In this document: one piece after another, positions 1 to 23,544 of the stretch
Layout of the letters: the number at the start of each line of letters is the position of its first letter
Numbering within the stretch: the stretch's first letter is position 1
UHGV virus genome: UHGV-0332110
Direction: 5' to 3' (one strand)
Length of the DNA: 23,544 bases
DNA from: a virus
Notes under the pieces: model-generated
Told to the model about the DNA's origin: nothing
The model's database searches: none
What the model saw: the letters and a program-made list of their open reading frames with translations, nothing else
Made by a program: the position numbers and the translations under genes

Positions 1-2470
1 CAGATTTGTCAAAAGTCTGCCCCTGCATCAGGGCATAACCAGACGGAACGGTATCTGATGGCCACGGGATTGGTGCACCGACTGGATAAAACTCTGCAGG
101 AGGATGAGCCGAGGTGTAAAGCTGCGCCCACGGCGACCAGTTTGCGTCGGTCATATCCCGTCGTGAACGAATAAATGCCGGAGCATGAGCACCGCTTGTA
201 CCACTCCAGCCGATGAGTAACTCACCTTCGCCAACGGCTGTCATCCCTTTCAGGTGAATGATATTTCCATACGCTGTTGGATATCCGTTGTTATACACCT
301 CGTATAACTCAAGACCTGTTGCCCCCTGTGTATTGTCTGTCAGCGCGGTTACCCGACCTTTTGAAGACAGATTAACTGATGATACTGCTGTTCCACCTGA
401 CGGTAACGCCCCGATCTCTGATGCCGTTGGCTTATTTCTGGAGTTATAGTCCCTTCGCCAGCCAGGTGAATAATCTGTTCCGTGATTAATATAGGTAAAC
501 TGGGCGTTAGTTGTTCCACCACCAGTGGAGGTGGTCGGTGTGGTAATGCGGATCGTCATCGCTGACTTTATCCCCATTACTTCAATGACAGCTCCGGCGA
601 GATGAATATTACCGCAGCCAGTATCAGTAATGATTTTATTATTGCCATAAGACCAGGAACCCTTGCACATCCAGTATGGATGGTTAAATGCTCCCTGAGA
701 ATCCAGCCACTCGATAAACTGTGCAGTCGTCCAGTTTCCTGTTGTTGTGCTTACTGACCCACCGAAGGCACGGCAGGCACCAATATTTTTCGTAAAGGTG
801 TCTTTGCCAGGGATATCCGCACCGTTCTGATCTTTCTGCAGACGTTTCTCAGCATTGTCATTGGCTGCTTTTACTGCCTTTGGCGTTGCCGCCAGCGTTT
901 CAGACGTGCTGTTGGTCGCGCTGCTTAGCTGGATTATCCCTTTCTGTGCTGTCGTTGCATCCTGTGCGGTGTATTTCCCGTTAGCCAGGTCATACGCGGC
1001 CTTAACGGCTTTTGGCGTTGCCGCCAGTGACTCGGAAGTGCTGTTGGTCGCACTGCTGAGCTGTACTATCCCCTTTTTCGTCGTGCTCGCATCCTCAAGC
1101 GCCACGGCGGATGTAATATCCTCTGCCCGTTTTGCCGCTGTCTCAGCGCGCGTTGCTGCAGATTCCGCCGTACTTTTGCTCTGAGCTGCTGCCGTCGCAC
1201 TGCCAGCTGCCTCTGTCGCCTTCGTGGATGCCGTCGTGGCGCTACCCTTCGCTGCTGACGCCTGTCTGGTCGCCTCATCTTTTGAAGCAGACGCAGATGA
1301 TGCCGATGACGACGCCGAACTGGCTGACGATGCGGCAGCCGTTTTTGAGGATTCTGCGCTGGTTTCCGACGCTTTCGCGTTCGTTTCGGATGTCTTCGCT
1401 GCGGAAGCTGACCTCGCTGCTGCGCTGGCCTGTTCAGTGGCTTCGCCAGCCTTCGTTGTGGCTGTTGAAGCGGATGATGCGGCGCTTTCTGCCGACTTTC
1501 CGGCAGCGGTGGCACTGGCTGAGGCCTGCCCGGCACTTGTTGACGCGGCACTGGCAGACGACGCAGCCGCTGTTTTTGAGCCTGCCGCAGCTGAGGCGCT
1601 CTGTCCCGCTGCCGTCTCAGAAGACCTGGCGTTCGTCTCGGACGTTTTTGCCGCCTTCGCGGAATTTGCTGCCGCCGTTGCCGAGGAAGCTGCGCTACTG
1701 GCGCTCGAGGATGCGTTCGTTTCTGATGATTTTGCCGCCTCTTTTGAAGCCGACGCATCCCGGGCTGAGGTGGCAGCTTCTGACGCTTTCGTAGTCGCGG
1801 TGGATGCAGAAGTGGCTGCTGATTGTTGTGACGCTGCCGCATTCGTTTCTGACGTTTTCGCGGCACTGGCACTGGTAGCTGCCGCGCTTTTTGAGGACTC
1901 TGCAGCGGCAGCACTTTTTTCCGCTTCAGTGGCCTTTGTTGATGCCGTTCCTGCGCTGGAAGACGCTGACTGAGCCGACGAAGCGGCCTGTCCGGCTGAC
2001 GTGCTGGCTGCGCGTGCTGAGCCTGCAGCATCAGTCGCATGGGTTGCCGCCTCACGGGCAGATGTGCCGGCATCGCCGGCTGACTTCTTCGCGGCTGCCG
2101 TGTTCTGTGCCACCGCGGACGCGTTACGCGCCACCTCTTCCACCATCAGTTCAAAACGGCGCAGAGCCTCAGGACGGGCATCATCCTCCGTCATGGCACC
2201 GAGAAAATCATTCAGCGTACCGGGTCGGGAATCTTCATACACGGTGATGGTCCCGGCATGTGACGGCGGGAATCCTTCCACCAACAGAATAACGCTGTAC
2301 TGACCGTACTCAACGTCCATGCTGTAACGCCCGGCTTCATCCGGATTTTCTGAGGCCAGCGTGTTCACCACCACCGCGGTGCTGTTACGTTTTGCTTTCA
2401 GCTGGATTGTGCAGTTCTGTACCGGTTTTCCTGTGCCGTCTTTCAGTACACCTGAAATCTTTACTGCCAT
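1..2470 (-). CDS. stf: Side tail fiber protein Stf, N-terminal ~823 codons; 3' end lies beyond the window start
   Basis: ATG at 2470..2468 (minus) with GGGG-rich SD upstream. Translation begins [30 protein letters not shown], as I recall for lambda Stf. A long Ala/Ser/Thr/Glu-rich shaft follows, then two tandem fiber repeats ([26 protein letters not shown]) and a conserved [26 protein letters not shown] motif at the window edge. The ORF track lists no stop-terminated minus ORF starting at 2470, consistent with an open frame to the edge. The listed 1066..2073(-) and 1224..1973(+) ORFs are other frames of the same GC-rich repeat DNA. Confidence 0.85.
868..1079 (-). repeat. Two tandem ~135-bp imperfect copies encoding the phage tail-fiber repeat motif inside stf
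   Basis: Plus-strand 878..945 (cctttggcgttgccgccagcgtttcagacgtgctgttggtcgcgctgcttagctgg...) recurs at 1013..1079 with a few substitutions. On the minus strand each copy encodes KGI(V/I)[11 protein letters not shown](S/T)[11 protein letters not shown]. Confidence 0.8.
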
Positions 2471-3200: not shown

Positions 3201-6602
<3,402 letters not shown>

Positions 6603-16961: not shown

Positions 16962-17655
16962 CCGGGACTGCAGTGTTTCCCGGACATCATCCGGTAGATG
17001 GCTGTAGGGGTTGCCATCCACCTTATGGCTGCCGCTGTAAATCAGCGTGATTTCCACGCCCTGTTTCTCCAGCGCAGCACCGTAATTACTGTGAGCCATC
17101 ATGACGCCGATGGAGCCTGTCCGGGCGGTCTGCGTGACCAGACGCCGGGAGGCGGCGCTGGCAAGCAGCTGACCTGCACTGCAGTTCATGTCGTTGGCCA
17201 GCGCCCATACCGGTTTTATGTCTCGCACACGGGCGATGATGTCAGCACAGTCAAATGCTCCCGCCACCATCCCGCCCGGTGTGTCCATATCCAGCAGAAT
17301 GCCGTCCACCATCGGATCGCTGGCAGCCTGTTGCAGACGGGCGATAATGCCGTTGTAACCGGTCATTCCCGAATACGGCTGCAGCGCCCGCGTCCGGCTG
17401 ACCAGCGTACCGGACACCGGCAGCACGGCGATGCCGTTCATGACCTGATAACTGCGGGCCTGTCGTGGTCCGTCATCATCACCGGATAACGCCAGCGCCG
17501 CGGGTGCCTCTCCGGCAGTCAGGCTGTCGCCGGATACTGCATCCGTCAGGCGGCTGATCCCAAGCTGGCCTGCAAGCGCACAAAAGAAAACCCGCGCATA
17601 GGCGGGTTCAAGCATCAGCGGCTCATTAAAAGCCATGCTGGCAATATGCGGGAGA

Positions 17656-17675
<20 letters not shown>
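16356..17675 (-). CDS. C: Capsid assembly/maturation protease C (S49-family serine peptidase)
   Basis: GTG start at 17675 (minus) giving (M)TAELRNLPHIASMAFNEPLMLEPAYARVFFCALAGQLGIS..., 439 aa as in lambda gpC. The track's ATG-initiated 484-aa version (from 17810) would overlap 155 nt of B and is rejected. Confidence 0.9.
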
Positions 17676-21356
<3,681 letters not shown>

Positions 21357-21382
<26 letters not shown>

Positions 21383-21902
21383 TCAGCAACCCCGGTATCA
21401 GTTCATCCAGCGCGGCTGCTTTGTTCATGGCTTTGATGATATCCCGTTTCAGGAAATCAACATGTCGGTTTTCCAGTTCCGGAAAACGCCGCTGCACCGA
21501 CAGGGGGATCCCGTCGAGAATACTGGCAATTTCACCTGCGATCCGCGACAGCACGAAAGTACAGAATGCGGTTTCCACCACTTCAGCGGAGTCTCTGGCA
21601 TTTTTCAGCTCCTGTGCGTCGGCCTGCGCACGCGTAAGTCGATGGCGTTCGTACTCAATAGTCCCTGGCTGGAGATCTGTCTCGCTGGCCTGTCGCAGTT
21701 CTTCAACCTCCCGGCGCAGCTTTTCGTTCTCAATTTCAGCATCCCTTTCGGCATACCATTTTATGACGGCGGCAGAGTCATAAAGCACCTCATTACCCTT
21801 CCCACCGCCTCGCAGAACGGGCATTCCCTGCTCCTGCCAGTTCTGAATGGTACGGATACTCGCACCGAAAATGTCAGCCAGCTGCTTTTTGTTGACTTCC
21901 AT
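21357..21902 (-). CDS. Nu1: Terminase small subunit Nu1
   Basis: 181 aa, MEVNKKQLADIFGASIRTIQNWQEQGMPVLRGGGKGNEVLYDSAAVIKWYAERDAEIENEKLRREVEELRQ..., matching lambda gpNu1. N-terminal winged-HTH region that binds cosB. Confidence 0.97.
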
Positions 21903-22079
21903 TGTTCATTCCACGGACAAAAACAGAGAAAGGAAACGACAGAGGCCAAAAAGCCCGTTTTCAGCACCTGTCGCTTCCTTTCTTTTCAGAGGGTATTTTA
22001 AATAAAAACATTAAGTTATGACGAAGAAGAACGGAAACGCCTTAAACCGGAAAATTTTCATAAATAGCGAAAACCCGCG
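21903..22079 (-). promoter_or_regulatory. cosB terminase-binding region (Nu1 R-site repeats R1, R2, R3 and A/T-rich IHF-type site)
   Basis: Three copies of the Nu1 R element (CGTTTCC.TTCT family) seen directly: about 21924..21942 (cagagaaaggaaacgacag), 21967..21986 (ctgtcgcttcctttcttttc, opposite orientation) and 22022..22039 (cgaagaagaacggaaacg). An A/T-rich block (aataaaaacattaagttatgacg) lies between R3 and R2. The order and spacing match my recollection of the lambda left end. Confidence 0.85.
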
Positions 22080-22091
22080 AGGTCGCCGCCC
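22080..22091 (-). other. cosN cohesive-end site (12-nt overhang sequence GGGCGGCGACCT on the minus strand)
   Basis: Plus strand 22080..22091 is aggtcgccgccc, the reverse complement of the lambda cohesive end GGGCGGCGACCT. It is flanked by ...aaaacccgcg on one side and cgtaacctgtcggatc on the other, as at the joined lambda ends (cosQ-side sequence at roughly 22092..22125). Confidence 0.9.
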
Positions 22092-22290
22092 CGTAACCTG
22101 TCGGATCGCCGGAAAGGACCCGCAAAATGATAATAATTATCATCTGCATGTCACAACGTGCATCTACGCCATCAAACCACGTCAAATAATCAATTATGAC
22201 GCAGGTATCATATTAATTGATCTGCATCAACTTAACGTAAAAACAACTTCAGACAATACAAATCAGCGACACTGAATACGGAACAACCTC

Positions 22291-22524
22291 ATGTCAACGA
22301 AGAACAGAACCCGCAGAACAACAACCCGCAACATCCGCTTTCCTAACCAAATGATTGAACAAATTAACATCGCTCTTGATCAAAAAGGGTCCGGGAATTT
22401 CTCAGCCTGGGTCATTGAAGCCTGCCGCCGAAGACTGTGCTCAGAAAAAAGAGTTTCGCCTGAAGCAAACAAAGAAAAGAGTGACATTACTGAATTGCTC
22501 AGAAAGCAGGTCAGACCAGATTGA
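22291..22524 (+). CDS. Small ribbon-helix-helix-like protein, YlcI/YnfO-like (DUF3950)
   Basis: 77 aa, MSTKNRTRRTTTRNIRFPNQMIEQINIALDQKGSGNFSAWVIEACRRRLCSEKRVSPEANKEKSDITELLRKQVRPD. Basic N-terminus, then an RHH-type pattern (beta-strand IRFP, helix NQMIEQINIALDQ, G-x-S/N turn, helix FSAWVIEACRRRL). The family name is from recollection of E. coli cryptic-prophage ylcI/ynfO, which occupy the equivalent position next to the terminase genes. No strong SD. Confidence 0.7.
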   Translation: MSTKNRTRRTTTRNIRFPNQMIEQINIALDQKGSGNFSAWVIEACRRRLCSEKRVSPEANKEKSDITELLRKQVRPD

Positions 22525-22581
22525 AGCAATTTAGATAATCGTGCAGACTAGGTACCTTCATATCACATGGAAGGTACTACA

Positions 22582-22995
22582 ATGGCTCAGGTTGCCATTT
22601 TTAAACAAATATTCGATAAAGTGCGAAATAATTTAAACTATCACTGGTTTTATTCTGAACTAAAACGTCACAATGTCTCACATTACATTTACTATTTAGC
22701 CACAGAGAATATTCATCTTGTTCTTGAAAACGATAATACGGTTTTAATAAAAGGACAGGGTAAGGTTGTAAATGTAAGATTTTCAAAAAATAAATGCCTT
22801 ATAGAAGCCACCTTAAAAGGATTCAAATCAGGAGAGTTATCATTTTACGAATACAGGAAAAATCTTGCTACAGCAGGGGTTTTCAGATGGATTACAAATA
22901 TCCACGAAAACAAAAGGTATTACTATACCTTTGATAATTATTCGCGGGGCTTTTTATTGCCATTACAAAAGCCACTTCCTACAGAGTGGCTTTGA
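22582..22995 (+). CDS. Hypothetical protein, YbcV-like (DUF1398), with a variant C-terminal tail
   Basis: Start preferred at ATG 22582 ([18 protein letters not shown]...) with SD-like GGAAGG 7 nt upstream; the track's start is the in-frame ATG at 22567. 137 aa from 22582, AT-rich. The C-terminal 18 residues ([18 protein letters not shown]) are encoded by a 60-bp segment at 22940..22999, outside the repeat shared with the inverted cassette at 23250..23419. The family label rests on recalled similarity to E. coli DLP12 ybcV and is tentative. Confidence 0.65.
22823..22939. repeat. Inverted repeat A, left arm (117 bp, 100% identical to the reverse complement of 23303..23419)
   Basis: tcaaatcaggagagttatcattttacgaatacaggaaaaatcttgctacagcaggggttttcagatggattacaaatatccacgaaaacaaaaggtattactatacctttgataatt was compared base by base with the reverse complement of 23303..23419 and is identical. 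It lies inside the DUF1398-like CDS (codons ...[38 protein letters not shown]). Confidence 0.95.
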
Positions 22996-22999
22996 TAAT

Positions 23000-23124
23000 G
23001 GCTTATACCCTACACGGGATAACTTAACTGATATCCCTTTTAAAGGATAAAGGTATTCAAGCCTGACACATCATGCGCTGTATCGTCGCCGTATTCCCGT
23101 ATTAACAGAGACCGTAGCCCGACG
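23000..23124. repeat. Inverted repeat B, left arm (125 bp, 100% identical to the reverse complement of 23420..23544)
   Basis: ggcttataccctacacgggataacttaactgatatccc...gtattaacagagaccgtagcccgacg is the exact reverse complement of the last 125 bp of the window. It begins immediately after the second copy of the direct repeat ctttgataat. Confidence 0.95.
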
Positions 23125-23249
23125 GGGAACTCCTTCTGCGCGAGTGTGTGGGAATAATCAAAAACGATGCACACCGGGGTTACCGGGTACACATATTTCA
23201 TCATGCCAGCGAGTCCGGTTCTGGCACGGAAGAAACCGGACGTTATGAT

Positions 23250-23419
23250 TTAGTGCGGAAATATTTGTGTAGTGTTCTGAATGTTCTCAGTAAAGAGTAA
23301 TGAATTATCAAAGGTATAGTAATACCTTTTGTTTTCGTGGATATTTGTAATCCATCTGAAAACCCCTGCTGTAGCAAGATTTTTCCTGTATTCGTAAAAT
23401 GATAACTCTCCTGATTTGA
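23250..23419 (-). pseudogene. Silent inverted 3' cassette of the DUF1398-like gene encoding an alternative C-terminus (no start codon)
   Basis: The minus strand through A' and 51 nt beyond translates in the gene frame as (V)[55 protein letters not shown]-stop (TAA at 23252..23250, minus). Upstream in that frame, inside B', is an in-frame TAG only 3 codons before A', and there is no ATG, so the fragment cannot be translated on its own. Confidence 0.7.
23303..23419. repeat. Inverted repeat A', right arm (117 bp)
   Basis: aattatcaaaggtatagtaataccttttgttttcgtggatatttgtaatccatctgaaaacccctgctgtagcaagatttttcctgtattcgtaaaatgataactctcctgatttga is the exact reverse complement of 22823..22939. Identity stops on both flanks. 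Confidence 0.95.
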
Positions 23420-23544
23420 CGTCGGGCTACGGTCTCTGTTAATACGGGAATACGGCGACGATACAGCGCATGATGTGTCAGGCTTGAATACCTTTATCCT
23501 TTAAAAGGGATATCAGTTAAGTTATCCCGTGTAGGGTATAAGCC
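23420..23544. repeat. Inverted repeat B', right arm (125 bp; reaches the window edge, so its true extent is unknown)
   Basis: Exact reverse complement of 23000..23124. It directly abuts A' with no spacer, whereas on the left A and B are separated by 60 bp and are in the opposite relative order. Confidence 0.9.

Follow-up and report, generated by a model that had tools for sequence, protein, structure and literature searches.

The virus genome UHGV-0332110, analysed here as a single stretch of 23,544 nucleotides (nt; the window), carries a small two-gene module beside its cos site, at positions 22291-22995, which a first-pass annotation made from the sequence alone had described as a ribbon-helix-helix (RHH)-like DNA-binding protein followed by a DUF1398-like protein. 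The window is a lambda-type prophage arm in which Nu1 (21357-21902), terminase A (19457-21382) and the portal, head and tail genes lie on the minus strand, without exception among their open reading frames (ORFs) of at least 100 amino acids (aa). An exact string match places a lambda-type cosN at 22080-22091 (AGGTCGCCGCCC on the plus strand, GGGCGGCGACCT on the minus strand), and the Nu1 and A proteins encoded at its flank are 99-100% identical to lambda-type proteins. ORF1 begins 200 nt to the right of cosN and encodes 77 aa; ORF2 follows in the same orientation after 57 nt and encodes 137 aa when read from 22582. The first-pass annotation was correct in describing two small co-oriented plus-strand ORFs antisense to the structural genes, and in calling the module A/T-rich, with a G+C content of 0.32-0.43 over 22200-22999 versus 0.51-0.63 over 17000-21999, where structural genes lie. 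Its suggestion of moron DNA also holds, as the module is rich in A/T, runs opposite to the late operon, occupies the gap between the lysis genes and cos, and combines the deviant base composition, independent orientation and insertion hot spot with exchangeable content by which phage morons are recognized.

The module consists of catalogued genes of the ynfO/ydfO type that are already known and very common. A megablast search with 21900-23544 gave matches in 4883 of 5426 complete Escherichia coli genomes; the top complete-genome matches were 99.3-99.9% identical over 71% of the query, and the best-matching loci are annotated as nohD, YlcI/YnfO and DUF1398. The adjacent two-gene arrangement is intact in 2677 of the 5426 genomes, or about half (counted as genomes with at least 80% coverage of a two-gene query), including loci named ynfO and ydfO in RefSeq, and thousands of genomes, K-12 included, have both genes annotated. 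Both families are carried by most E. coli, and any function discovered for them would have very wide relevance.

The first gene, ORF1 (22291-22524, plus strand), was identified by ORF calling and hidden Markov model (HMM) matching as a member of the YlcI/YnfO family. The HMM search supports the assignment to DUF3950 made in the first-pass annotation (Pfam PF13132, 74.6 bits with a cut-off of 25), and a second match was found to NCBIfam NF041551, ‘YlcI/YnfO family protein’ (35.7 bits, cut-off 30); the nearest catalogued YlcI/YnfO proteins are 96-97% identical. The gene is made up of a conserved core (codons 1-55, 22291-22455) and a variable tail (codons 56-77), the last seven codons of which lie within the DUF1398 block described below. 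Residues I15, R16, F37, W40 and C45 are invariant in 24 diverse DUF3950 members, ORF1 included, and the IRFP...NFSAWV(I/L)(E/D)AC core is present; the IRFP...NFSAWV motif is retained in homologues from other genera at 36-57% identity. Among 57 distinct alleles, the ratio of nonsynonymous to synonymous polymorphism (pN/pS) of the core is 0.08, with 11, 10 and 39 variable sites at codon positions 1, 2 and 3, respectively. Lambda has a DUF3950 ORF of its own, which is 64 aa long, located at complement(48109..48303) (2210-2404, minus strand, in our locus L400) and unannotated in NC_001416. An apparent DUF3950-DUF1398 fusion (P0238) was rejected, as its gene call reads a TGA stop codon as tryptophan.

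The second gene, ORF2 (22582-22995, plus strand), is of the YdfO/YbcV type; codons 1-119 are native (to approximately 22939) and the last 18 are chimeric. An alternative start at 22567 would give 142 aa, but the start at 22582 is favoured because of a GGAAGG Shine-Dalgarno sequence 8 nt before it and because it is the start assigned by the Prokaryotic Genome Annotation Pipeline in the native locus. The match to DUF1398 (Pfam PF07166, 135.3 bits with a cut-off of 22) vindicates the earlier family assignment, and residues 1-125 match E. coli YdfO, for which a nuclear magnetic resonance (NMR) structure is available (PDB 2HH8, chain 2hh8_A), with an E-value of 2.3e-60. The Pfam match ends at profile position 112 of 119, and the C-terminal SLLFTE (within an SLLFTE.IQ ending) that is invariant in 15 relatives is absent from ORF2, which does not comprise the complete domain. 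The allele shares approximately 76% identity with that of the K-12 type and matches another common allele at 100%, and pN/pS for DUF1398 is 0.21. ORF1 and ORF2 are thus both real genes under purifying selection. A published and often repeated claim that YdfO overexpression raises oxidative-stress resistance (PMC4077768, citing PMC3105296) was set aside as a gene-name mix-up: the cited study names YfdK, YfdO and YfdS of prophage CPS-53, and ydfO does not appear in its main text. The sole published ‘function’ for YdfO is, therefore, a mis-citation.

Whether the two genes belong together was examined in a set of 230 non-redundant IMG/VR loci that cover the main variants of the DUF3950 protein's C-terminal tail. 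For the 77-aa variant, DUF1398 is the next gene, 56-58 nt downstream, at 68 of 69 loci, whereas it is next in none of approximately 143 loci of the 66-, 74-, 61-, 79-aa and minor tail variants with at least 1.3 kb of downstream sequence; downstream of these other variants comes a gene for a PerC homologue or a TonB_C-domain protein, or no gene at all up to Rz. Similarly, no DUF1398 gene and no Nu1 was found within 5 kb of DUF3950 homologues (36-57% identical) in 37 genomes of other genera, among them Serratia, Pectobacterium, Xenorhabdus, Pantoea and Klebsiella, in which the homologues adjoin integrases, AlpA-like genes and antirepressors. DUF1398, for its part, occurs alone as ycgX, beside bluR, and in lambda and DLP12 it lies approximately 650 nt from DUF3950, behind the opposite-strand gene ybcW. 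The source of this pattern can be read from the mosaic boundaries, as identity to lambda stops at ORF1 codon ~55 and restarts at 22504, which leaves 78 nt to the start of DUF1398. A mosaic junction inside ORF1, by which the last seven codons come from the DUF1398 block, explains the linkage of tail and cargo, and functional coupling is not needed. On balance, we favour the view that these are two ordinary, independently evolving moron genes that have become adjacent by chance in one mosaic variant of the lysis-to-cos gap, and that their toxin-antitoxin-like appearance is a by-product of mosaic joining.

Alternative cargo in the same gap comprises a PerC homologue, a TonB_C-domain protein, or ybcW together with ybcV and bor. 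In IMG/VR loci L160-L395, the gap from the DUF3950 gene to the Rz/lysis cassette is a hot spot for cargo, and its mosaic joints are sharp. The joint on the left falls within DUF3950 itself, at codon ~55, and every cargo thus supplies its own C-terminal tail. The TonB_C-domain cargo protein is 113 aa long and has a lipoprotein-like N-terminus.

The proposal that ORF1 is RHH-like found agreement in predicted topology, structural similarity, phage profiles and motif register, and none in the Pfam and PDB sequence searches. An AlphaFold2 (AF2) monomer model has a core predicted local distance difference test score (pLDDT) of 74-86 and consists of an extended segment (14-18), a helix (19-32), a GSGN turn and a second helix (37-54), with a weak helix at residues 64-72; as the ribbon of an RHH protein can form only in a dimer, it lies outside what this monomer model can display. 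The four top Foldseek matches in the PDB are all RHH proteins (CdbA, VapB), with E-values of 1.7-7, and 15 of the 24 DUF3950 members match the HicB-like family in PHROG (best 8e-5) while three match an Arc-like repressor (7e-4). Profile alignment also places NIRFP of ORF1 in register with NLRWP of Arc and NFRMP of Mnt (NIRFPNQMIEQI... versus NLRWPREVLDLV... in Arc and NFRMPMEV... in Mnt). Several results weigh against this assignment: the Foldseek E-values are all above 1; hhalign comparison of the family profile with single RHH sequences reached probabilities no higher than 11% and separated poorly from controls, with one non-RHH control (MazE) scoring as well as Mnt; a Pfam scan of the 24 members at E-values up to 10 gave no RHH family; and the DUF3950 profile had no match among PDB sequences. 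The four supporting lines are individually weak but agree with one another, and we consider ORF1 quite probably an RHH-type protein that may bind DNA. DUF3950 is a strongly constrained, probably Arc-like protein that lacks annotation in the lambda RefSeq record.

The DNA between cos and ORF1 contains two regulatory palindromes. A perfect 7-1-7 Fur box, TGATAAT-A-ATTATCA, lies at 22128-22142, approximately 40-60 nt right of cosN, with 0 mismatches, where 0.03 boxes would be expected at up to two mismatches. It overlaps the -10 element of a sigma70-like promoter-like site, GTGACA-16-TATCAT (22154-22127, minus strand), that reads across cos into Nu1. This overlap fits the published Fur repression of nohA, which is listed as Fur-repressed (PMC3688515), and, for lambda-type phages, the box implies iron regulation of a promoter that lies upstream of the terminase genes. 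Lambda carries TGATAATGATTATCA at the equivalent position. The second palindrome, TTGAT-CTGC-ATCAA (22217-22230), is the sole perfect FNR box in the window; it is centred 67 nt before the ORF1 ATG and occurs at the same distance in 72 of 72 loci of the 77-aa variant. An identical 24-mer is bound by FNR at nohA/ydfO and nohB by chromatin immunoprecipitation on microarrays (ChIP-chip) and electrophoretic mobility shift assay (PMC1802558), and the identical sequence is bound at nohA by chromatin immunoprecipitation sequencing (ChIP-seq; PMC3688515). Short operator-like repeats were also sought before ORF1, and none was convincing beyond the Fur and FNR palindromes.

It is tempting to speculate that the FNR site serves the first gene. 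A candidate -10 hexamer, GACAAT (22252-22257, plus strand), can be read from the sequence, and would set a transcription start near 22265 with the FNR centre at about -41.5, a class-II geometry. The published record weighs against this assignment in that the FNR ChIP-seq peak is listed only under nohA, in a group of operons whose expression in glucose minimal medium did not change in an FNR-dependent manner, and ynfO and ydfO are not named in the main text of that study (PMC3688515); likewise, the lacZ fusion of the earlier study reports the noh direction only (PMC1802558). The FNR and Fur sites previously assigned to noh alone are also located just upstream of the divergent DUF3950 gene.

ORF2 has an upstream region of its own, a conserved block that begins at 22504 and carries a PdhR-type box with the core GGTCAGACC (22506-22522), which marks the left edge of the DUF1398 block common to lambda. 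The box at 22504 (GGTCAGACC) corresponds to the PdhR site AAcaGGTcagACCAgaT identified between ynfO and ydfO by genomic systematic evolution of ligands by exponential enrichment (gSELEX; PMC7660256). For the FNR, Fur and PdhR sites alike, binding to identical K-12 sequences has been published. In published expression data, ybcV and ybcW are down approximately 10-fold in a pdhR mutant and up more than 1000-fold upon overexpression of T4 MotB, and ydfO is up 116-fold upon ionic-liquid shock. By its title, the MotB paper ties MotB to altered H-NS-dependent repression.

Taken together, the independent-moron reading suggests the following picture. The DUF3950 gene is a constant feature of its position, present in lambda itself and always divergent from the small-terminase gene, and its product is most likely an Arc/Mnt-like RHH dimer that binds DNA as a small transcription regulator, with its own promoter region between cos and the start codon as the probable target. 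The DUF1398 gene is one of several exchangeable downstream cargo genes, arriving with its own upstream block of approximately 80 nt and the PdhR box therein. Expression of both is probably under host control, with the AT-rich module silenced by H-NS, an FNR box in putative class-II geometry before the first gene and the PdhR box before the second. One result limits this picture for the cargo gene, namely that an AF2 model of DUF1398 from a 15-sequence alignment reached a pLDDT of only 44, and no biochemical function could be assigned from it.

Two other accounts of the pair bear directly on its coding content and coupling. That both are chance ORFs in AT-rich non-coding DNA beside cos might be suggested by their shortness and by the missing annotation of the first in the lambda RefSeq record, but this has virtually no likelihood: the low pN/pS values of 0.08 and 0.21 are accompanied by large synonymous divergence, homologues only 36-57% identical in other genera keep the IRFP...NFSAWV motif, and YdfO has an NMR structure. 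The first-pass annotation had instead likened the genes to an autoregulated antitoxin/toxin or repressor/effector pair; on such a model, the RHH protein would be an autoregulating antitoxin or repressor whose C-terminal tail neutralizes or controls a DUF1398 effector. The co-directional layout with a 57-nt spacer and an RHH-like first gene, the near-constant presence of DUF1398 after the 77-aa tail variant (68 of 69 loci), and a tail that appears to be under purifying selection and has a weak AF2 helix at 64-72 all speak for such a pairing. Against this, co-occurrence is confined to one mosaic variant (68/69 versus 0/~143 and 0/37), whereas conserved co-occurrence is expected of type II toxin-antitoxin systems and its absence was among the refuting observations that the first-pass annotation itself had named. 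DUF3950 occurs without DUF1398 in all other tail variants and in 37 of 37 non-Escherichia loci; DUF1398 occurs without DUF3950 (ycgX), or separated from it and with a different tail (lambda, DLP12); one and the same tail accompanies DUF1398 proteins that are only 76% identical to each other; and the junction within ORF1 already accounts for the linkage. PADLOC gave no meaningful match for ORF1 or ORF2, and DUF1398 is in none of the toxin or defence catalogues searched. A paired system is thus not supported, and we regard it as unlikely. What counts against independence is the tail itself, as the 27-codon tail of the 77-aa variant has a pN/pS of 0.14, with only seven variable sites; a constrained tail that always travels with its cargo leaves a residual doubt as to whether tail and DUF1398 interact in this variant.

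A different alternative is that the constant partner of the locus is not the cargo but the terminase. In this account, YlcI/YnfO would be a DNA-binding protein, proximal to cos and terS, that is tied to packaging or to phage-satellite conflict, with DUF1398 as a bystander; perhaps it modulates the Fur-box promoter directed across cos towards the terminase genes, or the access of terminase to cos. In keeping with this, the divergent orientation of DUF3950 and terS holds without exception, for terS of the Nu1 type and of the Terminase_2 type alike, and the Fur and FNR boxes lie within the same 200-nt cos-proximal region. A P4-like satellite in E. coli CP027459 (integrase, AlpA-like gene and D5_N primase; locus L396, 3590-4363) has two tandem DUF3950 genes, the second of which forms a fusion with the DNA-binding N-terminal portion of a small terminase, Terminase_2 (two such relatives, P0186 and P0211), and the adjacent prophage has a further DUF3950 gene beside an HNH gene and a Terminase_2 fragment. 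Both these fusions and the listing of DUF3950 genes in capsid-forming phage-inducible chromosomal islands (PMC13612085) favour a link to packaging. Simple linkage at a moron hot spot would, however, give the same constant position, and no lambda-type cosN was found near 41 distant DUF3950 loci. To our knowledge, lambda packaging in vitro and in cosmids requires no such protein, which also counts against the idea. We consider a packaging or satellite-conflict role improbable, and there is a small chance of a role for the DUF3950 protein at the cos/terminase control region. The broader form of the idea is a long shot: that the constant partner of the locus is the small-terminase gene together with cos, and that YlcI/YnfO is a conserved Arc-like DNA-binding protein of cos phages and satellites, which could act on the cos-proximal control region (Fur-box promoter and FNR box) or on terminase/cos recognition. 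If true, iron and oxygen sensing, or phage-satellite conflict, would be linked to DNA packaging, and the extreme right end of lambda would hold a functional gene that had so far escaped annotation. We retain the reading of two independent moron genes.

The right end of the window is rearranged, and the ‘cassette structure’ that the first-pass annotation saw at the 3′ end of the module turned out to be a fold-back that truncates ORF2. When mapped onto a native reference (CP138423, locus L001), 21900-22942 is colinear and runs forward to native position 5044. The next 480 nt (22940-23419, minus strand) are an inverted copy of native DNA from further downstream (5403 to 4924), hence the apparent cassette, and are followed by a forward copy of native 5219-5343 (23420-23544, plus strand) that duplicates the inverted 23000-23124 and reaches the window end exactly. 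The true DUF1398 3′ end, with its stop codon, sits inverted at 23250-23419 on the minus strand, and ORF2 has exchanged its 17 last native codons for 18 foreign ones, which probably inactivates this DUF1398 copy. Located in the loop of a terminator hairpin of the native locus, the first junction shows 3 nt of microhomology. Neither junction was found in 81 related loci, IMG/VR, metagenome contigs or complete E. coli genomes, and an exact-sequence lookup of the chimeric ORF2 protein returned no record. The zig-zag is either a template-switch rearrangement private to this sequence or a chimera produced during assembly or amplification; in both cases, it does not belong to the module.

Three further observations concern the surroundings of the module. 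An 85-aa ORF at 22018-22275 (plus strand) was dismissed as spurious, having no family match and spanning cosN, at which it would be split in linear virion DNA. An Rfam search of 21800-23544 gave no credible match. The lambda right end, with its DUF3950 ORF approximately 200-400 nt from the contig end, is present in dozens of ‘genomes’ of unrelated taxa, including Streptomyces, Pedobacter, Cohnella and Shewanella (loci L088-L119, L133 and L140), many on contigs of approximately 3.5 kb; this looks like contamination with lambda control or spike-in DNA.

A small module of this kind is not without precedent. Its outline resembles that of type II toxin-antitoxin systems such as ParD/ParE, RelB/RelE, CcdA/CcdB and HicB/HicA, in which a small basic RHH-like gene precedes a slightly larger co-directional gene on a mobile element, but the pair described here is not conserved, its second gene brings a separate regulatory block upstream and occurs in other contexts, and the genes are spaced by 57 nt without overlap. 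Like Arc and Mnt of P22, ORF1 encodes a small phage protein with an N-x-R-x-P strand motif, and its predicted model has, as they do, two helices joined by a G-x-x-N/S loop, although ORF1 has no significant profile match to Pfam RHH families. As with the lambda morons bor and lom, the module is AT-rich, would be dispensable for lytic growth, occupies the lysis-to-cos gap, runs antisense to late transcription or lies outside it, and is expected to be expressed from the prophage; unlike bor and lom, its products are not lipoproteins or outer-membrane proteins, and we know of no lysogenic-conversion phenotype for either.

The closest counterparts are found at the right end of lambda and in two E. 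coli prophages. In lambda and DLP12, the order is ylcI, ybcW (lambdap79), ybcV (lambdap78, the DUF1398 homologue) and bor. Identity is complete over the DUF3950 core, to codon ~55, and over the region that holds cos, the Fur box and the FNR box, and the DUF1398 block has 82% DNA identity with lambda from the PdhR box on; the lambda DUF3950 protein differs in its length of 64 aa and in its tail, as does the position of DUF1398, which is removed by the intervening opposite-strand gene. The ynfO-ydfO locus of the Qin prophage in K-12 departs from the window in its DUF1398 allele, to which that of the window is approximately 76% identical, and in the last 17 native codons, which are replaced in the window. 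In arrangement it agrees with the window, having the same families, order and strand, a spacing of approximately 57-60 nt, a matching location with nohA (a Nu1 homologue) on one side and the lysis genes on the other, and the same FNR 24-mer and PdhR box, and a Qin-type ynfO-ydfO locus has 87.5% DNA identity to the two-gene segment of the window.

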